The notes under the pieces: generated by a model
What the model was told of the DNA's origin: nothing
Databases searched by the model: none
Seen by the model: the letters and a program-made list of their open reading frames with translations, nothing else
NCBI GenBank assembly: GCA_036743235.1
Contig: DAINPX010000001.1
Location: forward strand, 1-33,836
DNA from: Melioribacteraceae bacterium
GTDB taxonomy: Bacteria; Bacteroidota; Ignavibacteria; Ignavibacteriales; Melioribacteraceae
DNA length: 33,836 nucleotides
Reading direction: 5' to 3'
Shown here: positions 5,948-24,011 of the stretch, piece by piece
Layout: each line of letters opens with the position of its first letter
Numbering within the stretch: position 1 is the stretch's first letter
Translations under genes and position numbers: made by a program

Positions 5948-5972
5948 TTTTTCTCCTATTCATGTTTAAACT

Positions 5973-6009
5973 AAAAAAGCCTTTCTCGGTGTAACGAGAA
6001 AGGCTTTTT
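5973..6009 (-). terminator. Intrinsic terminator forming the attenuator of the trp operon leader
   Basis: Minus strand reads AAAAAGCCTTTCTCG-TTACAC-CGAGAAAGGCTTTTTT. This is a perfect 10-bp GC-containing core extended by A:U pairs, followed by a U6 tract. It lies 21 nt after the trpL stop and 25 nt before the trpE ATG. Confidence 0.85.
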
Positions 6010-6030
6010 AAATATAATTATTTCTCAAAA

Positions 6031-6123
6031 TCACCAAGACTTATTGCAGTACGTACCCCACCACCACCAAATGTTTTGGCTATTTGAAGTTAAAAGGCAA
6101 TATGTCTTGGTTATTTTTTTCAT
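6031..6123 (-). CDS. trpL: trp operon leader peptide, 30 aa: MKKITKTYCLLTSNSQNIWWWWGTYCNKSW
   Basis: Manual translation. There are four consecutive TGG codons at 6069..6058 and a fifth TGG as the last sense codon. It sits directly between a promoter-like element and the terminator upstream of trpE. It is too short for the ORF track. Confidence 0.8.
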   Translation of the reverse strand: MKKITKTYCLLTSNSQNIWWWWGTYCNKSW

Positions 6124-6129
6124 GGGTGC

Positions 6130-6158
6130 AAAATAACAATCATTTTAATCTTTGTCAA
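6130..6158 (-). promoter_or_regulatory. Sigma-70-like promoter candidate for the trp leader
   Basis: Minus strand reads TTGACA (6158..6153), a 17-nt spacer, then TATTTT (6135..6130). The -10 element ends 6 nt before the trpL ATG. Confidence 0.4.
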
Positions 6159-6199
6159 TAGCTTGCATAAATTTTCATAAAAATACATTTATTTTCATT

Positions 6200-9100
6200 T
6201 TAAAACAGTATTTTTTCAATTCCTTCTTTTTTTACTGTTTTAATAAAGTTTTTCTTCCAGTCCTTCCCTAAAAATTGCTCGGCATTATATATTACCAACG
6301 ATTTTCCATTAACTTTTATATTAGAATCTAACTTATTTAACCCCATAACACAACTAGGGCAAGTAGTTAACACTTCAATTTGCTTTTCATAATTTTGGTT
6401 ATTAAAGTTTTCTACTTTTCTATCTCTAAGTATATTGGCTATATCCGGTCGGGATAAAGCAAGAGTTCCTGCCTCTCCGCAACAATTTGGTATTACGTCA
6501 GGCTTTATACCGTATATATTACTAAACGTTTTATCGCATCCTTTATGTTTTAATGGGCTATGACAAGGCTCGTGATAATAAAGTTTATTACCGTTACTTT
6601 TTTTTGTATAAAGTTGTTCTTGTGCTATGTATTCATTTACATCAATTAATTTGGCATTGTTAAAAATGTTTTCAAGTTCATATTTATCCAACATTTCGTA
6701 ACACGTTCCGCATGATACAATAACCGCTTCAATATTTAAGTAACCCGCAGTATATGCCATTTTATGAAAGATTACTCTGTTTTCATAACTTTTTAATTCT
6801 GCAGTTTCTATTTTACCGTTTGCCATAAACGGATAGCCGCAACATAAATACTCGGGAGGAATAACAACTTTTATTCCGGCATTATATAACAAAGTTATTA
6901 CCGCCAAACTTATTTCGGGTATCATTCTTTCAGAGCCACACCCCGGAAAATATACAACACTTTTACCCGTAGTTATTTTAGGGTTTTCAAAACAATAAAA
7001 CATATCTGTATTTTTTAAGTTAAATATTTCCCTAATCGTTTTTTCTCCGCTTTTAGGAAAAGGGCTTCGTAATAAATGATTAAGTTTGGGAATTATTAAA
7101 CCGGTATAATATGAAATAGGTTTATTTATATAAGATATAATACGTTGCGAATTATATCCTATCTTCAATAATCCAAGTCTAAATATTTTATTAATAAAGT
7201 ATTTTTTTCTTCCTAAATAAAATAATGCAATAGCAGTAAATATTTTAGCTTTTGTTTTTTTTCTAAACTCTAATTGTTTGCGTATTGTTATGGATATATC
7301 GCCAAAATCAATTTTTACAGGACAAGGAACTTGGCACTTATGACACACAGTGCAATTATCCGATATCTCTCTTAAATTCTTAAAATATTCAAACGATTTC
7401 ATGTCTAATGTTTGTGCAGCAAACAACACTGCTTCGGTTATTGAACCAACCGCCAATATTTTATTTCGAGGATTATAAAACATTTCTCCTTTGGGATAAT
7501 GTGTATTACAAACCGTTTTACATTTTCCGCACCTAACACACGAAGATATCTGTGAGGATAGTTTTTCCAAATCCGTATATTCCAATATTATTGCTTCTCG
7601 CTCCAACAAATTAAATGACGGCGTATATATTAAGTACAATGGAAAATTTTTATTTAATTTACCCGGGTTAAACAAATCATCAGGATCATTAATTTTCTTA
7701 TACGCTTGATACTCATCCAAAATTTCTTGGTCAATAAATTTTAATTTTGTTAGTCCTATTCCGTGCTCGCCTGATACAACACCACCCAACTCAACTGCCT
7801 TTTTCATTGATAAAGAAGCCGCTTCATCGGCTTCGTTCATCATCAAATAATCGTTTGAATGAACCGGAATATTTACATGAACATTACCGTCACCCGCGTG
7901 CATGTGTGTTGCAATTATTATTTTTCTTGTCCTTTCAGCTATTTCAATTTTTTCAATGTCTTTTATTATTTCATCGTATCCGTGAAATACTTTTTTATAA
8001 TAACTTGTAATTTCTTTATCATATTCTATTATTATTTTTCCGCTTTGTATATCTGCTAAAATATTATTGTTTGTATTTATTTCATGTAATAATTTATTAT
8101 ATATTTGTTTTTTATTTTCAAGTTCCACAATTATTCCCTCAACACGTTTGTGGGGAATATTATCTCTTTCTGATTTATTTAGTTCAATTAAATAATCATT
8201 TATTTTGTTAATTGTTGTTATTGAATTTTCATATTCTTTGCAATAATTCAGCTGTTCGATATAATCGGCAAAATGGGGTAAATTGCGTAACGGAATTACA
8301 ATATCTTCATTTAGCTTAAACGCATTTGTGTGTTTTGCAATTGCCCCCAAATGTTTTCTATCATTCCAAAATATTTTCCTTTCGCTATCGTTAATTGCCA
8401 GTGTTCCTTCTGCATTAAAACTATTTGCAACCGATATTATCTTATTACAACCCTGTTCCAGTTCATCAGTATAATTACTTTCCAAATCAATTAACAATAC
8501 CGCTTTTGGATTTTCGTTTCTATTAGACTTATTCCTATAATTTATAGCATCAACATATTTTTCGTCAAAATGTTCTAATGCGGTTAAATATACTTTATTA
8601 TCTTCAGAAAACAAATCGTTTATTTTTATTATTGCATTAGATGCTGCAACCATGTTACTGCCAAAGAACTCGATACAAATAGTTTTACAATATTTAAAAG
8701 GGGTATATAAAACAAATTTAGCAGATACAATTACACCATCCCCCCCTTCTTTTTGTAACCCGGGCAAACCTTTTAATGCCTTATTTGTAATATCTTTCCC
8801 CAGCCCTTTTTTTCTTATTTCTGTTCCGCTTAGTTCAATGGTTTTAGTTAATAAATCCCCTTTGCCGTTTAATTTATATACATCAAATATTACATTATCT
8901 TCCGGTAGTATTTTTCTGTATGGGTGGTTTCTCCTTTTTACTTTTAATATATCTCCGGTGCTATTAACAATTTTAAACGAATACAAATTATCTATTGCAG
9001 TACCCCACATTACACATTTTTTGCCGCCTGCATTTTCGGCAATATTTCCGCCTATTGTACTTGCCCATGCCGATGTAGGATCTGTGGCAAATATATACCC

Positions 9101-9871
9101 TAACTTTTCGCAATGTTCAATAATTGTATCGGTAACTACTCCGCTTTCAACTTCAATAACGGGAATAATATTTTCATTTTCCTCAACATGTTCTATTTCA
9201 TGTATTTTAGTAAACTTTTCGGTATTTATTACCATTGTTCTTCTGTTAACGGGCACGGCTCCGCCGGTTAACCCGGTACCGCCGCCTCTGGGAATTATAG
9301 AAAGATTTAATTTTTTAGCTACTTTAATTAATACCGGTATCTCCTCAATAGAATTGGGATATACAACAACAAACGGATACTCTACTCGCCAATCTGTTGC
9401 ATCGGTAGCATGGCTTACAAGATGAAAAGAGGAAAAATGTACATTTTTTAATGATACTAAACCGGTTAACATTAAAAGTAATTTTTGTCGTAATAATTTT
9501 ACAGTGTAAAACTCCTTAAAAAATCTTTCATTTAAATCTTCAACCTTTTTTATAACTTTTAAGGCAGTTTCATCCCCTTTGCTATTCCGTCTTACTGTTT
9601 CTATTCTTGAATTATGTATTATTTTTAACTTATTTCTTTTATGTTTATTTTTAAGAAATTCCTCATATAGGTAAGGGTTTCGTTCTATAATAAATATATC
9701 GCCAACATTTTCGTATAATAGTTTTGCACTTCTTCCTGTTATTCTTCTATTTCTTAATAGTTCAACTTGTTGCCAAGTCTCTTTATCAAAATATTTTAAT
9801 ATAATTTCTTTATCCGAAAACGAAGTATAATTATAAGTAATTTCTCTAAATCTAAATTCTTTACTTTGCAT
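6200..9871 (-). CDS. Large fused oxidoreductase: N-terminal DUF3683-like region, FAD-linked oxidase (GlcD-like), 2x[4Fe-4S] ferredoxin motifs and two CCG cysteine-rich domains (GlcF/HdrD-like)
   Basis: 1223 aa. PRGGGTGLTGGAVP marks the FAD_binding_4 domain and SGEHGIGLTK the FAD-oxidase C-terminal part. Cluster motifs are CVRCGKCKTVC..P and CTVCHKCQVPCP. CCG-type motifs are FPGCGSE...CCGYP and EPCHSP...CCGEAG. The overall architecture resembles E. coli YdiJ. An AGGAGA Shine-Dalgarno sequence is present, 25 nt after the asd stop. Confidence 0.8.
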   Translation of the reverse strand: MQSKEFRFREITYNYTSFSDKEIILKYFDKETWQQVELLRNRRITGRSAKLLYENVGDIFIIERNPYLYEEFLKNKHKRNKLKIIHNSRIETVRRNSKGDETALKVIKKVEDLNERFFKEFYTVKLLRQKLLLMLTGLVSLKNVHFSSFHLVSHATDATDWRVEYPFVVVYPNSIEEIPVLIKVAKKLNLSIIPRGGGTGLTGGAVPVNRRTMVINTEKFTKIHEIEHVEENENIIPVIEVESGVVTDTIIEHCEKLGYIFATDPTSAWASTIGGNIAENAGGKKCVMWGTAIDNLYSFKIVNSTGDILKVKRRNHPYRKILPEDNVIFDVYKLNGKGDLLTKTIELSGTEIRKKGLGKDITNKALKGLPGLQKEGGDGVIVSAKFVLYTPFKYCKTICIEFFGSNMVAASNAIIKINDLFSEDNKVYLTALEHFDEKYVDAINYRNKSNRNENPKAVLLIDLESNYTDELEQGCNKIISVANSFNAEGTLAINDSERKIFWNDRKHLGAIAKHTNAFKLNEDIVIPLRNLPHFADYIEQLNYCKEYENSITTINKINDYLIELNKSERDNIPHKRVEGIIVELENKKQIYNKLLHEINTNNNILADIQSGKIIIEYDKEITSYYKKVFHGYDEIIKDIEKIEIAERTRKIIIATHMHAGDGNVHVNIPVHSNDYLMMNEADEAASLSMKKAVELGGVVSGEHGIGLTKLKFIDQEILDEYQAYKKINDPDDLFNPGKLNKNFPLYLIYTPSFNLLEREAIILEYTDLEKLSSQISSCVRCGKCKTVCNTHYPKGEMFYNPRNKILAVGSITEAVLFAAQTLDMKSFEYFKNLREISDNCTVCHKCQVPCPVKIDFGDISITIRKQLEFRKKTKAKIFTAIALFYLGRKKYFINKIFRLGLLKIGYNSQRIISYINKPISYYTGLIIPKLNHLLRSPFPKSGEKTIREIFNLKNTDMFYCFENPKITTGKSVVYFPGCGSERMIPEISLAVITLLYNAGIKVVIPPEYLCCGYPFMANGKIETAELKSYENRVIFHKMAYTAGYLNIEAVIVSCGTCYEMLDKYELENIFNNAKLIDVNEYIAQEQLYTKKSNGNKLYYHEPCHSPLKHKGCDKTFSNIYGIKPDVIPNCCGEAGTLALSRPDIANILRDRKVENFNNQNYEKQIEVLTTCPSCVMGLNKLDSNIKVNGKSLVIYNAEQFLGKDWKKNFIKTVKKEGIEKILF

Positions 9872-9896: not shown

Positions 9897-10937
9897 TTAT
9901 ATCATTCTTTTTTTATACATTATTTCTGCAATTAATATGGTACCCCCGGCAGCTCCTCTTATTGTATTATGCGATAATACAACATATTTATAGTCAAATA
10001 AATTACACTCCCTTAATCTTCCTGTAATAGCAGCCATCCCTTTATCTATACTTTTATGTAAACGTGGTTGAGGATATTTTTCGTTGTCAAAATATTTTAT
10101 TGGTGTTACCGGTGCAAAAGGTAAATTCATTTCTTGCGGTAAAGATTTATATTCTTCCCAAGTTTTTAATATTTCCTCTTTTGTCGGTTTATTAATAAAA
10201 CTAAGCTGAACAATTTCCGTGTGGCCGTCTTTTACAAACACTCTATTTGTAGAAGCACTAATTTTAATATCTGCATTAATAATTTTATCCTCATCCATTC
10301 TCCCCAATATTTTAAGAGGTTCACTTTCCAATTTATCTTCCTCACCCCCAATAAAAGGAATAATATTATCTATCATATCTAAACTCGGCACTCCCGGATA
10401 TCCCGCACCGCTTATTGCCTGTAATGTAACAACATTTATTGACTTAACTCCAAATTTGTTATGTAATGGGGCAATTGATAATATTAACCCTATAGTTGAA
10501 CAATTAGGATTTGTAACAATAGCTCCGTTATTATATTTCTGATACTTTATTAAATTTAAGTGCTCATGGTTAACTTCCGGAATAATTAACGGAACAGCAT
10601 AACTCCATCTGTGGTTTTTTGCATTTGATATTATTATATGTCCTTTATTTGCCAAGTTTTCTTCAATCTCTCCCGCAACCGAAGCATCTAATGCCGAAAA
10701 CAATAATTTGGAATTAAATTTATCATCGCATAATTTAATAACTTTATCGGCAATTTTTTTAGGCATCTCAGCATCTTCAATCCAGTTAACAACGTCCTTA
10801 TATTTTTTCCCTGCAGATTTATCTGATGCCGCAATTTCTTCTACTTCAAAATACGGATGATTATTTAATAGTGTTATAAATTTTTGTCCTACACTTCCTG
10901 TAGCTCCTAAAACCCCTACTTTTATTTTTTTATCCAT
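9897..10937 (-). CDS. asd: Aspartate-semialdehyde dehydrogenase
   Basis: 346 aa. Motifs are VGVLGATGSVGQ, the active-site NPNCST, and QAISGAGY. Confidence 0.92.
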   Translation of the reverse strand: MDKKIKVGVLGATGSVGQKFITLLNNHPYFEVEEIAASDKSAGKKYKDVVNWIEDAEMPKKIADKVIKLCDDKFNSKLLFSALDASVAGEIEENLANKGHIIISNAKNHRWSYAVPLIIPEVNHEHLNLIKYQKYNNGAIVTNPNCSTIGLILSIAPLHNKFGVKSINVVTLQAISGAGYPGVPSLDMIDNIIPFIGGEEDKLESEPLKILGRMDEDKIINADIKISASTNRVFVKDGHTEIVQLSFINKPTKEEILKTWEEYKSLPQEMNLPFAPVTPIKYFDNEKYPQPRLHKSIDKGMAAITGRLRECNLFDYKYVVLSHNTIRGAAGGTILIAEIMYKKRMI

Positions 10938-10943
10938 ATTTAC

Positions 10944-12251
10944 CTACTCGTTAATACTTAATAAATATTCTTTTAAATCTTCATAATTGCTTGATAAAAC
11001 ACTACTCTTTTTTTCTCTATCTATACACTTTGTCAATCTATCGGGTTTTTCTATTTTTTTATTTAATGCGTTTTCTATTATCTCGTAAAATTTTGCCGGA
11101 TGCGCAGTTTCTAAAATAATAAATTGCGTATTCTTACTGAATTTATCCTGCATTTTTTTTGTTGCTGCATAGCCCACTGCACCATGAGGGTCAATTATAT
11201 ATCCATATTTTGTATAAACTTCTTTTATACCGTTTAATATTTCATCATCGTTAATTTTATTGGATACAACATCATCCATAATTTTTTTGTGTTCATTATT
11301 ATATAAATCAATTATACGGGCTAAATTACTCGGGTTACCAACATCCATTGCGTTTGCATAAGTTTTTACGGATTTTTCCGATTTAAATACACTTGTTTTT
11401 AAATATTTATTAAATACATCATTAATATTTAATGCAGCAATAAATTTATTTACAGGCAATCCCATTTTTTTTGTAATAAGCCCAGCCGTTAAATTCCCTA
11501 AATTCCCGCTTGGAACGGTAAAAACAATATTTTCGGCACTTTCGCTACAATTAAAATAAGCGTCATAATAATAGATCATTTGAGGCAATAACCTTGCTAT
11601 ATTTATTGAATTAGCAGATGAAAGTCTAATATTGTTTTTTAAAAATTTATCATTAAAAGCCGTTTTAACAAGTCTTTGACAATCGTCAAATGTTCCTTCT
11701 ATTTCCAATGCTTTAACGTTACCACCTAAAGTAGTTATTTGTTTTTCTTGCAAAAAACTAATTTTATTTTTAGGATACAAAACAACAACTTCAATTCCAT
11801 TTTTATTATAAAATCCGTTTGCAACCGCACTACCCGTATCTCCCGAAGTTGCAACAAGTATTATTAACTTTCTTTTTTCATTCTTATTAAAATACTCGGT
11901 AACTGCAGCCGTAAATTGTGCCCCAAAATCTTTAAATGCCAAGGTGGGTCCGTTAAACAATTCCAACACCATTGTATTATTATCAAGTAATACCAACGGG
12001 GAATTAAATGTAAAAATATTATCAACAATGTCTATAAAATCATTTTCAGGTATCTCATCTTCAATGTATTTTTTTAATATCGGAAATGCTGTATTTTTAA
12101 ACGAATGATTTTTATTTTTACTAAAGTATTCATTTTCCATTTTGGGAATTATTAACGGCATATATAAACCACCGTCTGCGGCTAATCCTTCTAATACTGC
12201 GGTTTTAAAAGATACAATATTGTTTTTGTTGTTTGTACTATAATATTTCAT
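10944..12251 (-). CDS. thrC: Threonine synthase
   Basis: 435 aa. It has the PLP-lysine motif PTLAFKDFG, then ATSGDTGSA and TAHPAKF. Confidence 0.92.
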   Translation of the reverse strand: MKYYSTNNKNNIVSFKTAVLEGLAADGGLYMPLIIPKMENEYFSKNKNHSFKNTAFPILKKYIEDEIPENDFIDIVDNIFTFNSPLVLLDNNTMVLELFNGPTLAFKDFGAQFTAAVTEYFNKNEKRKLIILVATSGDTGSAVANGFYNKNGIEVVVLYPKNKISFLQEKQITTLGGNVKALEIEGTFDDCQRLVKTAFNDKFLKNNIRLSSANSINIARLLPQMIYYYDAYFNCSESAENIVFTVPSGNLGNLTAGLITKKMGLPVNKFIAALNINDVFNKYLKTSVFKSEKSVKTYANAMDVGNPSNLARIIDLYNNEHKKIMDDVVSNKINDDEILNGIKEVYTKYGYIIDPHGAVGYAATKKMQDKFSKNTQFIILETAHPAKFYEIIENALNKKIEKPDRLTKCIDREKKSSVLSSNYEDLKEYLLSINE

Positions 12252-12252
12252 T

Positions 12253-13191
12253 TTATTTTCTATTTATTAATAATGCCCCTTGCTTATTAACTTTTGTTAC
12301 AAAAATAGAATAAGCATATTTTTGTGTCTTCATAAACTCTTTTATGTTTGTGCTTATTTGTCCGGCAATTTCGCTAGAACCTGCAAAGGCAAAAATGGAG
12401 GGACCACTTCCTGAAATATTACATGCCAAAGCACCCGATTTATAAGCGATATTTTTTATTTCTGCGTAATTAGGAATTAAAAACGCCCTGGCAGGTTCAA
12501 CAATATAATCTTCAACAGCTCTTCCTATTAAATTCAAATCATTCATAAACAAACCTGCAGTTAATGCTGCACTATTTCCCCAATGCTTTATTGCATCTTT
12601 TAAAGGTACGCATTCAGGTAATACTCTTCTGGCTTCTTTTGTGCTTATTTCTATATCGGTATATATTATTACGCAGTATAAATTTTCTGGAGTGGGTAAT
12701 TTTATTATATCAAGCGGAGAATAACTCCTTATTAAAATAAATCCCCCGAATAATGCAGGAGCCACATTATCGGCATGTAATCCTCCGCTTGCTATTTTTT
12801 CGCCTTGTAATGCATATTCCAACAATTTATTTTCGGAAAGATTGAGATCGAACAAATAATTACCCGCTACCGCAGAAGCAACAGCACAAGCCGCGCTACT
12901 GCCTAAACCGCTGCTAATTGGCATATATTTGTTAATTTCCAATTCCACACCACAAGAAATATTATTTTCCAACATCATTGTAATTAACGGAGCTCCAACG
13001 GTATTAAGCCTAATATCTTTTGGCAATTTACCTTTATCGCCGGATATTGATTTAATTATCAAATCATTCCCCTCGGTTTTACGTAACGTAATTTCATCTC
13101 CTAATTTTTCAATTGCAAAACCAAACGTGTCAAATCCGCAACCAACATTACTTACCGAAGCCGGTACAAATACTTTAACTTCATTATACAT
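12253..13191 (-). CDS. thrB: Homoserine kinase
   Basis: 312 aa. It has the GHMP kinase motif PISSGLGSSAA and an N-terminal PASVSNVGCGFD. Confidence 0.92.
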   Translation of the reverse strand: MYNEVKVFVPASVSNVGCGFDTFGFAIEKLGDEITLRKTEGNDLIIKSISGDKGKLPKDIRLNTVGAPLITMMLENNISCGVELEINKYMPISSGLGSSAACAVASAVAGNYLFDLNLSENKLLEYALQGEKIASGGLHADNVAPALFGGFILIRSYSPLDIIKLPTPENLYCVIIYTDIEISTKEARRVLPECVPLKDAIKHWGNSAALTAGLFMNDLNLIGRAVEDYIVEPARAFLIPNYAEIKNIAYKSGALACNISGSGPSIFAFAGSSEIAGQISTNIKEFMKTQKYAYSIFVTKVNKQGALLINRK

Positions 13192-13200
13192 AATATTTTT

Positions 13201-15648
13201 TTATATTTTATCAATTATTTTAATTAAATCGGCAAATACCGCCGCAGCCGTAACCTCTAATCCCGCACCGGGACCTTGAATTATTAATGGATTATTATTA
13301 TAATATTTACTTTTAATAACTACCATATTATCGGTTAAACATAAATTATAAAACGGACTATTAGGTCCAATAGACTTAATTCCTATTTTTGCTTTTCCGT
13401 TTTTATATTCCGCAATATATTTTAATCTTTCATTTTTGCTTTCGGACTGTAACCGCTTATTTTCATATTCTTTATCTACTTCAGATAAGTTGTTATAAAA
13501 ATCATCCAAAGTGCAATCAAAAAGTAATTCATTATCAATTATCTTTTCTTGTTCAATCGCATTAGGTTCTATGACAATTCCCAATTCGCGTATTAGAATA
13601 ATTATTTTTCGTAAAACATCAAATCCCGATAAATCGTCTCGTGGGTCCGGTTCGCTAAATCCTTTTTTGCTTGCTTTTTTTATTGCTTTAGATAACGGTA
13701 CATCCTTAGAAATAATATTAAAAATATACCCCAGCGTACCCGATAATACTGCCTCAATTTCTTCTATTTCATCTCCTGCGTTTTTCAAATCGTTTAGCGA
13801 AGTTAATATCGGTAATCCGGCTCCAACGGTTGCTTCGTAATTAAAAAAAGTTTTGTTTTTTTGTAATTCCAAAAGTTTTTGATAATAATTGTAATCTATT
13901 GAATTTGCCGTTTTATTGGCAGTAACAATACTCACTTTGTTTTTAAGCAAATTCAAGTATTCTTTTGCAAGTTCCTTTCCTGATGTACAATCAACAAAAA
14001 TTTTATTTTTTAATTTAGAGTTAATAATTTGTTCAACAAATTTATTATCGGTATAATTTTTTGCTATAAAATTAAAATTACTTCCTAAGTCCTTATCGTT
14101 TATCCCCTCAATACTCCAAATCATTTTTTTACTGTTTGAAACCCCTATTAAATTAAGTCTTATATTTTTTTGCTTTAACAAATATTCTTTTCTATTTATA
14201 AGTATTTCTATAAATTTATTACCTATCTTTCCAATTCCTGCCACAAACAAATATACATCTTTTACACCGTTAAAAAAGAATTTTTTGTGTATTAAATTTA
14301 GTGCATTCTTTAAATCCGTTTTATTTATGACCATTGAAATGTTTAACTCGCTACTTCCTTGGGCAATAGCAACAATATTAATTTTTTCGTCTCCTAAGGC
14401 TAAAAATAAATTTCCGGCAATTCCGGCAGTGCTTCTCATATTTTCGCCAACTACCGCTACAATTGATAATTCACTCTCTATCTTAATATCGTTAACTAAA
14501 CCATCTTTTAATTCGTAATAGAATTCATTTCTAATTACTTCTTGTGCTTTTTCGGCAAATTTGGGTAATACTGCAAAACAAATAGAATGTTCAGAGGATG
14601 CTTGAGTAATTAATATTATATTAATTCCTTCGTTTGCCAATACTCCAAACAACCTTTTGGCAATACCTGCTACACCTACCATTCCCGGACCTTGAACACT
14701 AATTAAAGCTACTTCGTCTATTGAAGAAATTCCTTTTATTGCATATTTGTCTTTTGTAGAACTACTTTGAACTAATGTACCAATAAAATTAGGATTAAAA
14801 GTGTTTTTTATTCTAATCGGAATATTTTTAACCATTGCCGGATACATAGTTGGCGGATGAATTACTTTTGCACCGAAGTGGGATAGTTCCATTGCTTCTT
14901 CGTAAGATAAAAATGAAACAGGAAAAGCATCTTTTACTTTTCGCGGATCTGCCGTTAATACACCGTCAACATCCGTCCATATTTCAATTTCTTCAACATT
15001 TAGTGCTGCTCCTATTATTGATGCCGTATAATCCGATCCTCCCCGCCCTAATGTTGTTGTTTCGTTTAAATTATTTGAAGCAATAAACCCTGTAATTATT
15101 TCAACTTTATTACTTTTTTCAAAATAATTTTTAATTAGTTTTTCCGAAATTTCTAAATTAACTTTTGCCGAACCAAATAGTGAATCGGTTTTAATAATTT
15201 CTCTTGCATCGCAATAATTGGCATTAATTCCTAATGTAATAAAATATTCCGATATTGCATAATTAGAAATTCTTTCTCCATAACTCAACAAATTATCCAT
15301 AGTTTTAGGAGAAATTTCTTTTATAAGATATATACCATGCAGCAAATCTTTTATTTCATTTAAAAATATTTCTACCTGATATTGTATTTTTTTTGTATTC
15401 TTTTTAATTAGCTTTGTTACAATTTCTTTGGTTTTTTCTACTAAAATATTAAAATTGGTTTTATAGCTAATATCTCCTTTAGATGCCGTTAATCCTATTT
15501 CTATTAATAAATCCGTTACGCCTTGAAAAGCCGAAAAAACAACGGCTATTTTTTCGTTATTTTTTAATTTGTTTTTTATTATGCTTCCTACATCTGCAAT
15601 TCTATCGGCACTACCTACAGAAGAACCTCCAAATTTTAAAACTTTCAT
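13201..15648 (-). CDS. thrA: Bifunctional aspartokinase / homoserine dehydrogenase (paralogue II, thr-linked)
   Basis: 815 aa. It has KFGGSSV and TTTLGRGGSDYTA...WTDVDGVLTADPR (kinase domain), a central ACT region, and a C-terminal HSDH domain (GIGKIGN, LSGTLGYIF). GAGGAG Shine-Dalgarno sequence. It is followed directly by thrB and thrC. Confidence 0.92.
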   Translation of the reverse strand: MKVLKFGGSSVGSADRIADVGSIIKNKLKNNEKIAVVFSAFQGVTDLLIEIGLTASKGDISYKTNFNILVEKTKEIVTKLIKKNTKKIQYQVEIFLNEIKDLLHGIYLIKEISPKTMDNLLSYGERISNYAISEYFITLGINANYCDAREIIKTDSLFGSAKVNLEISEKLIKNYFEKSNKVEIITGFIASNNLNETTTLGRGGSDYTASIIGAALNVEEIEIWTDVDGVLTADPRKVKDAFPVSFLSYEEAMELSHFGAKVIHPPTMYPAMVKNIPIRIKNTFNPNFIGTLVQSSSTKDKYAIKGISSIDEVALISVQGPGMVGVAGIAKRLFGVLANEGINIILITQASSEHSICFAVLPKFAEKAQEVIRNEFYYELKDGLVNDIKIESELSIVAVVGENMRSTAGIAGNLFLALGDEKINIVAIAQGSSELNISMVINKTDLKNALNLIHKKFFFNGVKDVYLFVAGIGKIGNKFIEILINRKEYLLKQKNIRLNLIGVSNSKKMIWSIEGINDKDLGSNFNFIAKNYTDNKFVEQIINSKLKNKIFVDCTSGKELAKEYLNLLKNKVSIVTANKTANSIDYNYYQKLLELQKNKTFFNYEATVGAGLPILTSLNDLKNAGDEIEEIEAVLSGTLGYIFNIISKDVPLSKAIKKASKKGFSEPDPRDDLSGFDVLRKIIILIRELGIVIEPNAIEQEKIIDNELLFDCTLDDFYNNLSEVDKEYENKRLQSESKNERLKYIAEYKNGKAKIGIKSIGPNSPFYNLCLTDNMVVIKSKYYNNNPLIIQGPGAGLEVTAAAVFADLIKIIDKI

Positions 15649-15673
15649 AACTCCTCATCTACTTGTTTAAAAT

Positions 15674-15707
15674 AAAAAAACCGACCTAGTTAGACTAAAG
15701 TCGGTTT
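15674..15707 (-). terminator. Intrinsic terminator upstream of thrA (attenuator 3:4 helix)
   Basis: Minus strand reads AAACCGAC-(14-nt loop)-GTCGGTTT, followed by TTTTATTTT. It ends 25 nt before the thrA ATG. Confidence 0.6.
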
Positions 15708-15729
15708 AAAAGAATAGTATTCACCAACT

Positions 15730-15789
15730 TCAGTCTGTTAGACTGCCGGTAGTTATAACGGATGTTAGTGAAATACACGAGGATAACAT
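15730..15789 (-). CDS. Candidate thr leader peptide, 19 aa: MLSSCISLTSVITTGSLTD
   Basis: Manual translation. The Ile-Thr-Thr codons (ATA ACT ACC) end 4 nt upstream of region 1. The TGA stop lies inside region 2. There is no obvious Shine-Dalgarno sequence, and trpL lacks one too. Confidence 0.4.
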   Translation of the reverse strand: MLSSCISLTSVITTGSLTD

Positions 15790-15853
15790 ATGGACAAACC
15801 TTATAATTTATAATTATGCAAATAATTAAATAACTTTTCAAATTTACAGTGTA

Positions 15854-15882
15854 TATATAAGACATATTTTTGTATAAAGCAA
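15854..15882 (-). promoter_or_regulatory. Sigma-70-like promoter candidate for the thr leader
   Basis: Minus strand reads TTGCTT (15882..15877), a 17-nt spacer, then TATATA (15859..15854). It lies 26 nt after the stop of the upstream AK-HSDH gene. Confidence 0.35.
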
Positions 15883-15907
15883 GCATAAAAATGCAAAAAA
15901 CCCGAAA

Positions 15908-18361
15908 TTAATAGAAAAAATTTGCAATTTTAATTATATCTGCCAAAATACCTCCGGATGTAATTTTAAAACCTGCTCCGGGTCCTTTTAATAACACGGG
16001 TGTTTCATTATAATAAACTGTAGTAAACGATATGCTATTCTCGTTATTTCTTAGCTCGTAAAATGGATGATTTTTATCAACCTGCTTTAGTCTTACACTT
16101 GCTTTATTTCCTTTATATTCGGCAATATATCGCAATACCATATTGTTACTTGCAGCTATTTTTCTCTTTTCTTCAAATAAAGAATTATATTCTTTTAAAT
16201 ACTCAAAAAACTCTTCGCCTTTATTTTCTTGTAAGTCGTCAATCAATTTTTCAATTTGTATTTCTTCAAAATTAATATTAAATCCGGCTTCTCTTATTAA
16301 GACCAGCAATTTTGTTGCAATGTCACTTCCGTCTAAATCTACCATCGGATTTTTTTCGGTATAACCCAATTCACATGCTTCTTTTACAGCATCAGAGAAA
16401 GATTTACTCTCATTTATTGAGTTAAATACATAACTTAAAGTACCGCTTAGTACTGCCTCAATTTCAATTATCTTATCTCCGCTTAAAATTAAATCTTGTA
16501 AAGTATTTACAAACGGTAAGCCGGCTCCTACATTAGTTTCAAAAACTAACTTTGCGTTATATTTTTTTGCAGCATTTTTAAGTTCATTATATATTTTATT
16601 TTTAACTGTACAGGCTTTTTTATTTTGGGTAATTATTGAAACGGATTTTTTTAACAGACCTAAATAATAATTTACTACTAACTCACAACCGGTACAATCA
16701 ACAAAAACCGAATTGGGCAAATTTCCCTTAATAATTGTTTGTATAAATTCATCGGTATTGCTTAACTTCCCTTCATATAATAATTCTTCTTCCCATGCTT
16801 TAACATTAATTCCGCTTTCTTTTATTAGCATTTTTCTTGTATTGGCAACCCCCACAACTCTAATTTCCAAATTCAAATTATTAAATAAATAATTTAACTG
16901 ATTATTTAATTGGGCAAAAAGAGTTTTACCCAACTCTCCAGTTCCTAATACAAACACATTTATTACTTTTAGATGTGATAAAAAAAACGAATCGTGAATT
17001 GCATTTAATGCTTTTCCTATATCACTTTTTGAAATTACCAAAGAGATATTAAGACGGGAAGACCCTTGAGCCGCAGCTTCTATTTTAATTCCGTTTCTTC
17101 CCAAAGCCTGATATATTTTTTCCGGTACACCCGGTAAATTTCTTATATTCTCGCCAACAACCGCAATTACTGCAACATCTTTATCTGTTACAATTCCGTT
17201 TATTAATCCGTCATTTATTTCATGTTTTAGTTCTTCTGTTATTAATTTTTCTGCTCTTTGTGCATTTTCTTCATAAATGCTAAAACAAATTGAATGACCG
17301 GATGAAGCTTGAGATATTAATATAATACTAATGTTATTGTAGGCAAGCAAATTAAATATTCTACCGGCTAATGTGGCAACATCTATTAAGCCTGTTCCTT
17401 TTACATTAATAAGGGCTACATTTTCAATTGTTGAAATACCGGTAACGGCATAGTCGTTTGTTATTGTTTCATTTGTAATTACTGTACCTTTAAATACCGG
17501 ATTGAATGTATTTTTAATAATTATGGGTATCCCCTTTATTAAAGCCGGACGTATTGTTGGTGGGTAAATTACCTTTGCTCCAAAATGGCTCATTTCCAAT
17601 GCTTCTTCATAAGACATTTTTTCAATAGGCAAAGCTCTTTTTACTTTTCGGGGGTCTGCGGTTAATACTCCGTCAACATCAGTCCATATTTGAATCTCTT
17701 TAACATCTAATGCAGCTCCTAAAATGGATGCGGTATAATCGCTACCGCCTCGCCCCAATGTTGTGGTTTCACCTTCTATAGTACTACCTATAAACCCCGT
17801 TACTACTTTTATTATTTGCTTACTTTTCAAGTAATCATTTATTATTTTATCCGTCTTACTAAATAATACCCTTGCATTCCCAAAATTATTGTCTGTTTTT
17901 ATCAGTTTCCTGCTATCAACATATTCGGCTTTAAGTCCGGCACTATTTAAAGCTGCTGTTATTATTGTGCACGATAGTCTTTCTCCAAAACTCATAATAT
18001 GGTCTTTGCTGCGTGGGGATAGTTCCTTAATTAACCAAATGCCGTATAAAAGTTTTTCTAATTCATCTAATAGTAAGTTTACTTTTCTTCTAACCAAGTA
18101 CAAACTTTCGCCGGTAGTTAATTTTTCTATTACGGTTAGATGAATGTTTTTTATATACGAAAATCCGTTTTTATATTCATTCTTTCCTAAAGCCGCGTTT
18201 TCACCCGTGCTTATTAGTATATTGGTAATTGTTTGAAATGCGGAAAATACTAAAATTAAACTTCTGTTTTCATTATCTTCTTTAATTATATCAATTACTT
18301 TTTTAATGGTCTCGGGACTGCCAACCGATGAACCGCCAAATTTATATACAACAGTTTCCAC
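15908..18361 (-). CDS. Bifunctional aspartokinase / homoserine dehydrogenase (paralogue I, met-linked, metL-like)
   Basis: 817 aa, with the same domain order as thrA (YKFGGSSV, TTTLGRGGSDYTA, WTDVDGVLTADPR, ACT region, HSDH LSGTLSYVF). The start is GTG at 18361, preceded by AAGGGA. It begins 13 nt after the stop of the PLP enzyme gene. Confidence 0.9.
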   Translation of the reverse strand: METVVYKFGGSSVGSPETIKKVIDIIKEDNENRSLILVFSAFQTITNILISTGENAALGKNEYKNGFSYIKNIHLTVIEKLTTGESLYLVRRKVNLLLDELEKLLYGIWLIKELSPRSKDHIMSFGERLSCTIITAALNSAGLKAEYVDSRKLIKTDNNFGNARVLFSKTDKIINDYLKSKQIIKVVTGFIGSTIEGETTTLGRGGSDYTASILGAALDVKEIQIWTDVDGVLTADPRKVKRALPIEKMSYEEALEMSHFGAKVIYPPTIRPALIKGIPIIIKNTFNPVFKGTVITNETITNDYAVTGISTIENVALINVKGTGLIDVATLAGRIFNLLAYNNISIILISQASSGHSICFSIYEENAQRAEKLITEELKHEINDGLINGIVTDKDVAVIAVVGENIRNLPGVPEKIYQALGRNGIKIEAAAQGSSRLNISLVISKSDIGKALNAIHDSFFLSHLKVINVFVLGTGELGKTLFAQLNNQLNYLFNNLNLEIRVVGVANTRKMLIKESGINVKAWEEELLYEGKLSNTDEFIQTIIKGNLPNSVFVDCTGCELVVNYYLGLLKKSVSIITQNKKACTVKNKIYNELKNAAKKYNAKLVFETNVGAGLPFVNTLQDLILSGDKIIEIEAVLSGTLSYVFNSINESKSFSDAVKEACELGYTEKNPMVDLDGSDIATKLLVLIREAGFNINFEEIQIEKLIDDLQENKGEEFFEYLKEYNSLFEEKRKIAASNNMVLRYIAEYKGNKASVRLKQVDKNHPFYELRNNENSISFTTVYYNETPVLLKGPGAGFKITSGGILADIIKIANFFY

Positions 18362-18374
18362 TTAATATTCCCTT

Positions 18375-19529
18375 TTATTTTAAACTTATACTTTTTTCTA
18401 TAGCTTGTTTTATATCATTAATTAAGTCTTCGGCATCTTCAAGCCCTACAGAAAGTCTTACCAAACTATCCGTAATTCCCCCTGCCAATCTTTTTTCTCG
18501 GGGTATGGATTTATGGGTCATGCTTGCGGGATGACTTACCAAACTTTTTGCTCCTCCCAAACTTTCTGCAAGTTTAAATAATTTTGTAGAAGTTACAAAT
18601 TTAGTTGCTACTTCTTCTGTATCTTCTTCAAAAGAAATTGAAATCATACTACCCGGTTGTTTTTGTTGTTTTTTTACAATCTCATAATTTTTATGTGCCG
18701 GTAATCCCGGATAGTAAACATTTTTAATACCGGGTTGTTTACTCAAAAATTCGGCTATCTTTTTAGCATTTTCCACATGCTTTTCGACTCTTATTTTTAA
18801 GGTTTCCAAACTTCTTATTAATAACCAACTATCAAATGGTGATAGAACGGCACCGGTAGCATTTTGAACGTATTTTAATTTCTCACCAATTTCGATATCT
18901 TTTGCAACAACCAACCCTGATAAAACATCGGTATGTCCGCCAATATATTTAGTTGCACTATGAATAACTATATCAGCCCCAAGTTTTAACGGATTTTGAA
19001 AAATCGGAGATGCGAAAGTATTATCTACACATAACAATAAATTGTGTTCTTTTGCTATTTTGGCAATTTCTTCAATATCCGATATTTTTAACAATGGATT
19101 AGTCGGGCTTTCTAACCAAATTAATTTTGTTTTTTCGTTTATCGCTTTTTTAACATTATTAACATCGGTTGTATCAACAAAATTTATAGTAATTCCGAAA
19201 TTATTATATATTGTAGTAAACAATCTAAACGCCCCGCCGTAAATATCGTCAACTGCTAAAACTTCATCACCTGTTTTTAATAACTTTACTACCGAATCAA
19301 TTGCAGAAAGCCCGCTTGCAAAAGCTAATCCAACTGTTCCTCCTTCTAATTGTGCAATAATGGTTTCCAATATTTTTCTTGTAGGGTTATTTGTTCTTGT
19401 ATAATCAAACCCTTTATTTACTCCGGGTGATTCTTGTACATATGTAGAAGTTTGATAAATTGGTACTGCTAACGAACCGGTTAAAGGATCTACAGGTATT
19501 GCTTCCAATATTTGTGTTAATTCGTTCAT
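18375..19529 (-). CDS. Cys/Met-metabolism PLP-dependent enzyme (cystathionine gamma-synthase / beta-lyase family)
   Basis: 384 aa. It has the family hallmark ...HSATKYIGGHTD with the PLP lysine, plus YTRTNNPT and SLGGAKSL. AGGAGA Shine-Dalgarno sequence. The exact reaction (MetB, MetC or MetZ) cannot be decided from sequence alone. Confidence 0.85.
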   Translation of the reverse strand: MNELTQILEAIPVDPLTGSLAVPIYQTSTYVQESPGVNKGFDYTRTNNPTRKILETIIAQLEGGTVGLAFASGLSAIDSVVKLLKTGDEVLAVDDIYGGAFRLFTTIYNNFGITINFVDTTDVNNVKKAINEKTKLIWLESPTNPLLKISDIEEIAKIAKEHNLLLCVDNTFASPIFQNPLKLGADIVIHSATKYIGGHTDVLSGLVVAKDIEIGEKLKYVQNATGAVLSPFDSWLLIRSLETLKIRVEKHVENAKKIAEFLSKQPGIKNVYYPGLPAHKNYEIVKKQQKQPGSMISISFEEDTEEVATKFVTSTKLFKLAESLGGAKSLVSHPASMTHKSIPREKRLAGGITDSLVRLSVGLEDAEDLINDIKQAIEKSISLK

Positions 19530-19567: not shown

Positions 19568-19665
19568 AAAACAAAAAACCCCGCTAAAAAGCGGGGTTAT
19601 AAACTTTCACCTTATACTTTTTAGCACTGTTTTAAGTCGTTGCAATATGTAATAAATCTCGACTG
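19568..19665 (-). promoter_or_regulatory. Riboswitch unit 2 (aptamer plus intrinsic terminator), candidate SAM-II-like
   Basis: Minus strand reads AGTCG-AGATTTATTACATATTGCAA-CGACT, then TAAAACAGTGCTAAAAAGTATAAGG..., then the terminator CCCCGC-TTTTTA-GCGGGG followed by TTTTTTGTTTT. The tail GCTAAAAAG is perfectly complementary to CTTTTTAGC in the terminator. Confidence 0.65.
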
Positions 19666-19673
19666 TGGTATTT

Positions 19674-19770
19674 AAAACAAAAAACCCGCCAAATAGCGGG
19701 AAATATTAAAAACCTTTTGCTATTTAGCTATTTGTTTAATGTCGTTGCAATTTGCTTTAAATCCCGACAA
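19674..19770 (-). promoter_or_regulatory. Riboswitch unit 1 (aptamer plus intrinsic terminator), candidate SAM-II-like
   Basis: Minus strand reads TGTCG-GGATTTAAAGCAAATTGCAA-CGACA, then TTAAACAAATAGCTAAATAGCAAAAGG..., then the terminator CCCGC-TATTTG-GCGGG followed by TTTTTTGTTTT. The tail AAATAGC is complementary to GCTATTT in the terminator. Confidence 0.65.
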
Positions 19771-19790
19771 ATTTTTAAAGAACTATCGCA

Positions 19791-21964: not shown

Positions 21965-22136
21965 TAGTTTCTCCAATATTTATAAAATACTTTAGACGAA
22001 ATTAACAAAAATTTGTTTATAAATTTTCGCTTTTTTGGTTTTCTTTAAAAAATATTAAAAAATACTTGAATACTAATTATTTGTTCGTTAATTTATTTAA
22101 CATAATATAATAATTTATTTTCTATACGAGTTGATT

Positions 22137-24011
22137 ATGGACGCAAATGTTGTTAAAGAATTTTTAAAGAAAATTGTTCTATTTAAAGACTTAAGTGATA
22201 TTGAACTTGAGCTTATTACTAATTTAATTGAAATTAAAACCTTTGAAAAGGATGCGTTTTTATTTTACGAAAACAATCCTCGCAAAAATTTGTTTGTTAT
22301 TTACGAAGGTGAAGTTGAGTTATTTAAACGTACCCCTTTTGGTGAAGAAAAACGCTTGGCATTTTTTAGCCGATACGATTTTATTGGTGAAGGAGCATTA
22401 TTAGATGACTCGCCACATAGCACTAATGCACGTGCTTTATTAGAATCTACTATTTTTGTTTTAACTCGCGAAAAATTCCAAAGTTTAATTGATGATTACG
22501 GTTCTATTGCTGTTAAAATTTATAATCATGTTGCACGTGTAATTTCGCGTAGAATGAGACAAACCAATGCACGTGTTATAAATATTGCAGCCCAATACGA
22601 AAGCGGACGAACAAGAATTGAACATGACTTATTAGGCGATAGAGAAGTGCCTTACGAATATTATTACGGTGTTCAAACTTTGCGTGCTTTAGAAAATTTT
22701 AGCATTAGCAGTGTTGCCCTTTCTGCTTATCCTACTTTAATTGAAGGTCTTGCTATTGTTAAAATGGCTGCAGCAAAAGCCAATTTCGATTTGGGATTAC
22801 TTTCTAAACCGGTTGCGGACGCCATTGTGCAAGCATGTAATGAGATTTTAAACGGTAAACTTCATCCACATTTTGTTGTAGATATGATTCAAGGCGGTGC
22901 AGGTACTTCTACAAACATGAATGCAAACGAAGTGATTGCAAACCGTGCATTAGAAATTTTAGGCTACGAGAAAGGCGAATACAAATATTGCCATCCTAAT
23001 AATCACGTTAATTTATCTCAGTCAACTAACGATGCTTACCCTACAGCCGTTAAAATTGCATTAATTAAATCTAACAAAACTTTGGTTGCCGTACTTAAGT
23101 TATTGGTAGATTCTTTTAGAAAAAAAGGGAAAGAGTTTGCACATATTTTAAAAATGGGAAGAACCCAATTGCAAGATGCTGTTCCAATGACTTTAGGTCA
23201 GGAATTTGAAGCCTATGCATCAACCTTAAGCGAGGAAATTAGCAGACTTGAAGATAACGTTAAACTTTTCTTGGAAGTAAATATGGGTGCAACTGCTATT
23301 GGCACAGGCATTAACAGCGACCCCGGTTATAGTGCTAAAGTTGTTAAACACTTACAAGAAATTACGGGCTTTAATATTGTGTTGGCTCCTAATTTAGTTG
23401 AAGCCACACAAGATACCGGTGCTTTTATTATGTATTCATCAGCCGTAAAAAGATTAGCTGTTAAATTAAGTAAAATATCTAACGATTTAAGATTGCTTTC
23501 AAGTGGTCCCCGTGCCGGTTTGGGTGAAATCAATCTACCTAAGATGCAACCCGGTTCTTCAATTATGCCGGGCAAGGTAAATCCTGTAATACCCGAAGTT
23601 GTAAATCAAATTGCTTTTAAGGTTATTGGCAACGATCTTACGGTTACACTGGCTGCAGAAGCCGGTCAATTGGAACTTAACGTAATGGAGCCGGTAATTG
23701 TTCAAAGTCTATTTGAATCTATCGAAATGTTAAAAAACGGGATGACTACTTTAATGTATCGTTGTATAGACGGAATTACTGCAAACGAACAAAAATGTAG
23801 GGATTATATATTAAACAGTATCGGTATTGTAACTGCTTTAAATCCAGTTTTGGGTTACGAAACATGTTCTGCATTAGCCAAAGAATCTTTAGAAACTAAC
23901 CGTGGTGTATATGAATTAGTATTGGAACAAAAACTTTTATCAAAAGAAGTTTTGGACGAGTTACTTGCTCCCGAAAACATGATTGCACCGCAAAAGATGA
24001 CCAAAGAATAA
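22137..24011 (+). CDS. aspA: Aspartate ammonia-lyase with an N-terminal cyclic-nucleotide-binding-like (CAP_ED) domain
   Basis: The C-terminal ~465 aa begin RIEHDLLGDREVPYEYYYGVQTLRALENF and carry the signature GSSIMPGKVNPVIPE. The N-terminal ~155 aa (LFKDLSD...FYENNP...FVIYEGEVELF...FIGEGALLDDSPHSTNARA) form a cNMP-binding beta-roll fold. The start is ATG 22137; the track's TTG start is at 22131. Confidence 0.88.
   Translation: MDANVVKEFLKKIVLFKDLSDIELELITNLIEIKTFEKDAFLFYENNPRKNLFVIYEGEVELFKRTPFGEEKRLAFFSRYDFIGEGALLDDSPHSTNARALLESTIFVLTREKFQSLIDDYGSIAVKIYNHVARVISRRMRQTNARVINIAAQYESGRTRIEHDLLGDREVPYEYYYGVQTLRALENFSISSVALSAYPTLIEGLAIVKMAAAKANFDLGLLSKPVADAIVQACNEILNGKLHPHFVVDMIQGGAGTSTNMNANEVIANRALEILGYEKGEYKYCHPNNHVNLSQSTNDAYPTAVKIALIKSNKTLVAVLKLLVDSFRKKGKEFAHILKMGRTQLQDAVPMTLGQEFEAYASTLSEEISRLEDNVKLFLEVNMGATAIGTGINSDPGYSAKVVKHLQEITGFNIVLAPNLVEATQDTGAFIMYSSAVKRLAVKLSKISNDLRLLSSGPRAGLGEINLPKMQPGSSIMPGKVNPVIPEVVNQIAFKVIGNDLTVTLAAEAGQLELNVMEPVIVQSLFESIEMLKNGMTTLMYRCIDGITANEQKCRDYILNSIGIVTALNPVLGYETCSALAKESLETNRGVYELVLEQKLLSKEVLDELLAPENMIAPQKMTKE

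Follow-up and report, generated by a model that had tools for sequence, protein, structure and literature searches.

The E. coli thr leader encodes a short peptide that ends ...TITTGNGAG and carries eight Thr and four Ile codons. Attenuators are also said to have been predicted in Bacteroidetes/Chlorobi, by Vitreschak et al. in 2004 (FEMS Microbiol Lett). Leader-peptide attenuators on record for the FCB group comprise the Bacteroid-trp motif RF01692 (Weinberg 2010, PMC2864571) and the leaders of amino-acid operons in Flavobacterium psychrophilum (PMC9723704). These resemble the leader studied here, in that an ORF rich in codons for the end product is followed by an intrinsic terminator ahead of biosynthetic operons, but they concern Trp or lack a detailed description. 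The trpL leader of Sinorhizobium meliloti (rnTrpL) is a ribosome-dependent attenuator with few regulatory codons, and its terminated leader also works as a trans-acting sRNA (PMC6614838).

In this report, we analyzed the leader of a thrA gene in a stretch of 33,836 nucleotides from a Melioribacteraceae genome, called the window throughout. Our main conclusion, held with good confidence, is that this leader attenuates transcription of the thrA-thrB-thrC-asd operon in a ribosome-mediated (leader-peptide) manner; with some reserve, we also favor threonine as the signal to which it responds in this genome. The mechanism is textbook, and what is new is a conserved leader family, absent from Rfam, in Ignavibacteriota. 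Classical thr leader-peptide attenuation would thereby extend to this phylum, and the leader family would improve the annotation of aspartate-family regulation in FCB-group metagenome genomes. Our literature search for a thr leader in Ignavibacteria retrieved no description of one.

Compared with E. coli thrL (RF00506), the operon is of the same type, with thrA first, and is preceded by a short ORF with Thr and Ile codons and by overlapping 1:2, 2:3 and 3:4 helices; in both, the position of the ribosome would pick terminator or antiterminator. The predicted peptide tails are alike as well, the window's ...VITTGSLTD and the Pedobacter ...TIITTTGINQRG recalling that of E. coli; the thrA leaders of Pedobacter (Bacteroidota) read MNFNTSIISTIITTTGINQRG* and then a terminator. 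Unlike E. coli thrL, the window leader has only four Thr and two Ile codons, its region 1 consists of two elements, a long-range helix (P1) and an inner hairpin, and a strongly conserved motif in region 2, GACUGAAGUUGG, contains its stop codon. Rfam searches of the window and of seven related loci gave no family at the gathering threshold. The Thr_leader model RF00506 had no match in 15600-15950 even at E<=10, nor in the seven relatives' loci, and T-box and metabolite riboswitch models had none either; sub-threshold matches in 15600-15950 lay mostly over the terminator (STnc240, Qrr, MicF).

The thrA leader and its competing helices

On the minus strand, the gene order is metB-like Cys/Met PLP enzyme, AK-HSDH, a 259-nt gap, thrA, thrB, thrC and asd. 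An initial annotation of this DNA had placed an attenuator in the 259-nt gap between two AK-HSDH paralogues, and every element that it listed was found there, on the minus strand. The paralogues flanking the gap are 45% identical to each other, and both score above the NF006959 cutoff. The features of the locus are as follows.

18375-19529, minus strand: metB-like Cys/Met PLP enzyme
15908-18361, minus strand: upstream AK-HSDH paralogue
15649-15907: intergenic gap before thrA, 259 nt
15877..15882, minus strand: putative -35 hexamer TTGCTT of the thr-leader promoter, in a conserved block, predicted from sequence
15854..15859, minus strand: putative -10 hexamer TATATA, in a conserved block
15730..15789, minus strand: leader ORF, 19 codons and TGA, predicted peptide MLSSCISLTSVITTGSLTD*
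15764..15776, minus strand: P1 5' strand GUAUUUCACUAAC, ORF codons 5-9, main region 1 or anti-antiterminator
15740..15745, minus strand: region 1b CAGUCU, 5' arm of the small inner hairpin (region 1 of the initial annotation)
15723..15736, minus strand: region 2 AGACUGAAGUUGGU, antiterminator 5' strand, including the ORF stop codon
15717..15728, minus strand: P1 3' strand GUUGGUGAAUAC, partly shared with region 2 (its 3' half) and reaching 6 nt into the antiterminator loop
15692..15705, minus strand: region 3 ACCGACUUUAGUCU, strand shared by the antiterminator (with region 2) and the terminator (with region 4)
15674..15707, minus strand: intrinsic terminator, hairpin 15707-15678 (AAACCGACU.UAGU-CUA-ACUAGGUCGGUUU) and U-run 15680-15674
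15646..15656, minus strand: thrA Shine-Dalgarno GAGGAG (15656-15651) and start codon (15648-15646)
13201-15648, minus strand: thrA (second AK-HSDH)
12253-13191, minus strand: thrB
10944-12251, minus strand: thrC
9897-10937, minus strand: asd

The pattern TTGC(A/T)T-N17-TATATA is kept in all three Melioribacteraceae subclades (alignment A4), and transcription of the leader probably starts near 15847, as predicted from TTGCTT-N17-TATATA. A second sigma-70-like site (TTGAAA 15841-15836 / CATAAT 15818-15813) is not conserved in two related loci, L024 and L026. A 19-codon ORF with its stop inside region 2 had been proposed, and it is present: it runs from ATG 15789-15787, preceded by AAGG as a weak Shine-Dalgarno, to TGA 15732-15730, which lies in region 2. 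Thr occupies positions 9, 13, 14 and 18, those at 13 and 14 being the neighbors ACT ACC (15753-15748); the Thr codons end 2 nt before CAGTCT, and not 4 nt as first described. Four Thr in 18 codons is more than expected from the window's own proteome (4.8% Thr, p=0.0095), only two of them being adjacent. The U-run ends 25 nt before the thrA start.

The hairpin first described as 1:2, CAGTCT 15745-15740 with AGACTG 15736-15731, is there (-5.0 kcal/mol), but it is only the inner part of the pairing between regions 1 and 2. Region 2 pairs through its 5' half with region 1b and through its 3' half in P1; its larger partner is the stretch of ORF codons 5-9 (15776-15764), which pairs with 15728-15717. 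In the window P1 has 12 bp and one bulge, at -13.2 kcal/mol versus -7.9 for shuffles (p=0.007), and the whole region-1/2 domain, P1 plus inner hairpin, reaches -18.0 kcal/mol. The 2:3 helix, AGACTGAAGTTGGT 15736-15723 with ACCGACTTTAGTCT 15705-15692, was recovered as claimed, with 14 pairs (12 Watson-Crick, 2 G.U); this antiterminator has an energy of -18.4 kcal/mol and is the core of the minimum-free-energy fold. The 3:4 terminator likewise exists, with its 7-U run, but is longer than had been described, with nine outer and three to four inner pairs (15707-15678, -12.4 kcal/mol), the number of inner pairs varying with the fold. An outer ACCGGC/GUCGGU extension present in the minimum-free-energy fold was not counted, as a G-to-A change in one relative (L001) breaks the extension and improves the terminator.

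The pairing regions had been called mutually exclusive, and so they are: the antiterminator shares 15705-15692 with the terminator, and 15736-15723 is used both by the antiterminator and by P1 with the inner hairpin. The alternative states lie close together in energy, at -18.0 (P1 domain) and -12.4 (terminator) for one and -18.4 kcal/mol (antiterminator) for the other. In RNAfold, the minimum-free-energy fold is the antiterminator state (-32 kcal/mol), and the centroid is 1:2 plus terminator. For the single sequence, the fold has a z-score of -2.43 against 200 dinucleotide shuffles, five of which fold equally well; it is mainly conservation in relatives that argues for a feature beyond chance.

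The leader family in relatives

The window's ThrA matches with full identity a database protein assigned to Melioribacteraceae, and the genome loci nearest to the window belong to Melioribacteraceae and Ignavibacteriales metagenome-assembled genomes. Upstream regions of thrA were drawn from genome, Logan, ENA and JGI contigs, all sequences being metagenome-derived. The comparison set consists of 16 other thrA leaders, namely 12 distinct leaders found in genomes or contigs of Ignavibacteriota, Melioribacteraceae among them, and four from metagenome contigs. Synteny (metB-like, AK-HSDH, gap of ~260 nt, thrABC, asd and a 1223-aa FAD/CCG protein) is kept down to 56% ThrA identity. The last of these, a DUF3683/FAD-oxidase/CCG-domain protein at window 6200-9871 (minus strand), lies near thrABC-asd, and is syntenic with these genes wherever the relative loci reach (L019, L020, L021, L024, L026). 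Metagenomes were also searched by pattern; a first one, GACTGAAGTTGRT...CCGRCTTTAGTC, had no matches, and a looser one found 12 loci, six of which are chance matches inside coding sequence. For the AK-HSDH genes of L004, L005 and L007, which may be either paralogue, a leader was not visible. In L032 (1501-3947), thrA is broken into two pieces, one of 607 aa for AK and one of 195 aa for homoserine dehydrogenase, which may reflect a frameshift or an assembly error; its leader is intact.

The initial annotation had proposed looking for the mini-ORF and its Thr codons in orthologous thrA leaders. The ORF, with its stop in region 2, occurs in all 16 relatives, and Thr is enriched in a frame-specific manner: across 10 lineages the leader frame is the sole frame open in every one (10/10), and it holds 2-9 Thr, against 0-2 in the other frames. 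Enrichment in relatives reaches p=1e-6 relative to the window proteome, with runs such as TTITTT and TTTT, and all clades other than the window's subclade have clear Thr runs. The predicted leader peptides are the following.

Window and L001: MLSSCISLTSVITTGSLTD
L032: ...ITTGSPTG
L019: ...ITSGSSTD
L020 and L021: MLSSCYSLTSVSTSGSP(I/T)D
L022: MLNINLVSTSTVTLTTITPNLFRD
L025 and L027: MLKINFV(Y/F)ASTLTLSTT(L/T)PN(I/K)FRD
L024 and L026: MT(K/N)FNILTVSTLSSTTITT(I/T)FY(M/K)D
L029: MIMIAKHITLMKMMYTTTTPTLISG
L030: MNYLINTYSTATMTTTMWMTPTPYTG
L002: MKNMKSKYSQTSILLFTLTATPKTMPLYG
L035 and L037: MK(N/I)KKTY(P/L)(T/P)TTTMKPA(P/R)GG
L040: MKSVKTYCPTSTMPSTPKKTASPG

In every relative the stop codon lies inside the region-2 motif G(A/G)CUGAAGUUGG or its equivalent, and the family as a whole can be written G(A/G)CUGAAGUUGG ... 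AACCG(A/G)CUUYAG ... G(C/U)CGG(U/C)UUUUUU. In an alignment of 13 sequences spanning region 1b to the U-run (A2), 93.5% of the terminator cells are paired, and four pairs show double changes (two positions go from A-U to G-C, for example); for the antiterminator, 92.8% of the cells are paired and three pairs show double changes; sliding the partner by one to three columns, as a control, left pairing at <=53%. The inner hairpin CAGUCU/AGACUG becomes CAGUCC/GGACUG in L021, a compensatory change.

To follow the nascent RNA, each leader was folded up to 8 nt past region 2, that is, before region 3 exists. P1 was predicted in 13/13 nascent leaders, where codons from the middle of the ORF pair with the second half of region 2 and the bases after it; the Thr run and the small inner hairpin lie within P1 in all 13. 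Clades differ in the bases 3' of GUUGG (UGAAUAC, UG, AUGU, UAC, CUGUACAU, CAGUG, UUUGAUAUG), and in each clade these bases are matched by a partner in the clade's own ORF. The P1 duplex energy beats that of dinucleotide shuffles in 11/13 leaders (p<=0.043), and in L020 and L021 an ATT-to-TAT change turns the bulged P1 into a continuous 11-bp helix. Because of these nascent folds, the shuffle test and the covarying partners, P1, beyond the 6-bp CAGUCU hairpin alone, is the predicted anti-antiterminator. The features of a leader-peptide attenuator thus found are a short ORF, an intrinsic terminator before thrA, exclusive antiterminator and anti-antiterminator helices, and a stop codon in region 2.

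Modelled ribosome position and the proposed signal

In the mechanism that we propose, the nascent leader would fold first into P1, enclosing the Thr codons and the CAGUCU/AGACUG hairpin, with region 2 locked. A ribosome on the 19-codon ORF would melt P1; starved of Thr-tRNA, it would stall at codons 13-14 (or at any of codons 4 to ~15) and free region 2, which could then pair with region 3 in the 14-bp antiterminator, allowing RNA polymerase to read into thrA. A ribosome that reaches codons 16-19 or the UGA would cover region 2, and the 3:4 helix would form and stop transcription at the U-run 15680-15674. Without translation, P1 and the terminator would form, leading to termination too.

We modelled the ribosome as a 30-nt footprint placed at each A-site codon, and computed pair probabilities by equilibrium folding. 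In the window, an A site anywhere from S4 to T14 yields a P(antiterminator) of 0.92-0.99 in most cases (0.72 at V11), one at G15 yields 0.78, and from S16 through the stop P(terminator) is 0.91; the switch from read-through to termination is thus predicted just after Thr14. The earlier view that the geometry fits classical attenuation, with a ribosome at the stop codon masking region 2, therefore agrees with the model. Equilibrium folding of the full-length leaders under these masks gave a clean switch for the window clade, but failed for L024 and L026, for which it always predicted the terminator. Cutting the RNA after region 3 was more informative: every one of the 12 leaders modelled loses the antiterminator within its last four to five codons, and the Thr run ends 0-3 codons ahead of the modelled switch point. 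In naked RNA cut at the same place, equilibrium favors the antiterminator, and default termination would therefore depend on folding kinetics.

The window belongs to a subclade of six genomes (with L001, L032, L019, L020 and L021) whose ThrA proteins are 64-77% identical and whose thrA 4-fold sites are saturated (32-40% identity versus 32% expected at random). Promoter and leader, over ~245 nt (15650-15895), are nevertheless 86-99% identical across the six, as are the 250 nt upstream of thrA, over which clades elsewhere with a similar protein distance share 53-58%. Among the invariant parts are the 5' UTR, ORF codons 1-11 and all 17 nt of the antiterminator loop; codon 6, codons 11-18, including the Thr doublet, and the terminator loop vary. 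The first 11 codons carry no synonymous change at saturated divergence, and are therefore constrained as RNA and not as peptide. Two other coding explanations of the conservation were rejected. A 63-aa ORF on the same strand (15886-15695) has its ATG deleted and is interrupted by a TAA in L020 and L021; a TTG-initiated, Ile-rich reading frame that crosses the leader has mostly non-synonymous substitutions and would run through regions 1-3. Constraints from the promoter and from P1, 2:3 and 3:4 explain part of the conservation, though not obviously all of it; a trans role like that of rnTrpL is only a candidate explanation for it.

Within this frozen leader, the Thr codons drift. The doublet reads ITT in the window, L001 and L032, ITS in L019 and STS in L020 and L021, with Thr-to-Ser replacements at codons 12 and 14; Thr enrichment in this closest clade is not significant (p=0.05-0.2), and the stronger enrichment is that of Ser, which accounts for 5-7 of the 18 codons (p=0.003 to 4e-5). 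The initial annotation had cautioned that the RNA switch was better supported than the sensing peptide, and this holds more strongly than it stated, because the doublet is not conserved in the window's own subclade. That the subclade leader has gained a function or sensor beyond classical Thr-codon attenuation, be it re-tuned Ser/Thr sensing, a trans-acting RNA or a protein-binding platform, is unlikely in our estimate. In any case, Thr-codon decay alongside near-total nucleotide conservation constitutes a natural experiment on the minimum number of regulatory codons per attenuator.

It is conceivable that the switch depends on translation but is no longer Thr-specific in this subclade, sensing Ser together with Thr or general translation capacity. 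Such general sensing is possible because a stall at any of codons 4-15 would open P1 and free region 2, and indeed antitermination is modelled for any stall at codons 4-14; the abundance of Ser, with Thr down to 2-3, and the Thr-to-Ser changes at the critical positions 12 and 14 point the same way. Yet Thr13 is kept in 6/6 genomes, including through a synonymous ACT-to-ACA change, as is Thr9, and Thr/Ile18 is largely kept; other clades all have clear Thr runs, several of the Ser codons (UCA, UCC) are part of P1, whose structure may be what keeps them, and a metabolic logic tying Ser to thrABC is not evident. We therefore regard loss of Thr specificity as quite improbable.

The same ~245 nt of near-identity despite saturated thrA sites, which extends to an antiterminator loop and a 5' UTR whose conservation a plain attenuator does not require, could also be expected of a switch set by a protein or small ligand, or of a terminated leader working as a trans-acting RNA, for which S. 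meliloti rnTrpL (PMC6614838) is a precedent; the mini-ORF would then be incidental or secondary. Against this stand the ORF, its frame and its stop position, kept in every lineage despite near-complete replacement of the primary sequence, and the lack of a match to any riboswitch or T-box model in Rfam. The overlapping constraints of P1, 2:3, 3:4 and the promoter moreover account for much of the invariance, and we give this possibility very little weight. As the hairpin sits downstream of the upstream paralogue, and the single-sequence z-score is merely -2.4, hairpin and U-run might finally be the terminator of the metB-like/AK-HSDH operon, the ORF and the other helices having arisen by chance. 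We consider this extremely unlikely, because the 25 nt after the terminator are too short to accommodate a thrA promoter, and because L029 and L030 have the same leader before thrA without the upstream AK-HSDH paralogue, thrA following ilvD (divergent) or an MFS transporter; in addition, the conserved promoter lies upstream of the ORF, and covariation backs all three helices. The preferred reading thus remains that of a leader-peptide attenuator of the thr operon.

Probable RNA-level control at neighboring and related operons

Two other operons in the window carry signs of control by their leaders. In the gap before trpE (5948-6199), a Trp leader-peptide attenuator occupies window 5972-6123 (minus strand), upstream of trpE-G-D-C-F and a DAHP synthase gene. 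Its ORF (6123-6031) reads MKKITKTYCLLTSNSQNIWWWWGTYCNKSW*, with four consecutive TGG codons at 6069-6058 (WWWW), and is followed by a perfect 13-bp hairpin (AAAGCCTTTCTCG/CGAGAAAGGCTTT) and a U-run at about 6008-5972; Rfam did not detect this leader (5972-6123) at the gathering threshold. Its presence before trpE indicates that the organism uses leader-peptide control.

Two tandem sub-threshold matches of SAM-II type lie at window 19572-19778 (minus strand), before the metB-like/AK-HSDH operon, each followed by an intrinsic terminator. RF00521 scores 33.8 bits (GA 36, E=5e-6) at 19778-19703 and 24 bits at 19673-19600, and RF01726 scores 25.7 bits in the 19572-19778 region. Their location suggests that the upstream AK-HSDH is a SAM-regulated isozyme of the Met branch. 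Judging from these sequence elements, the met branch of the window appears to be under SAM-II-like elements, the thr branch under the Thr leader and the trp operon under the Trp leader; three neighboring amino-acid operons, each with its own RNA-level control, support the attenuator reading for thr.

Lysine genes are usually controlled by lysine riboswitches. The switch scaffold of the thr leaders, GGCTGAAGTTGG ... AAACCGGCTTTAGC ... GAGCCGGTTTTTTTTT, recurs together with a P1-like helix in L036 (2696-2821; L039 is identical), upstream of dapA-dapB-dapD(acetyl)-lysC-amidohydrolase. Its leader peptide is Lys-rich (MANITNIKKSKIKKASPPNG*, five Lys in 20), and only one example was found. This element is a candidate lysine leader-peptide attenuator, and it hints at a modular attenuator family that would include such a lysine form.

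Elsewhere in the window, the gene at 22131-24011 (plus strand) encodes a 626-aa protein in which an N-terminal cyclic-nucleotide-binding domain (PF00027) is joined to a class II fumarase/aspartase (Lyase_1 and FumaraseC_C), an unusual fusion.
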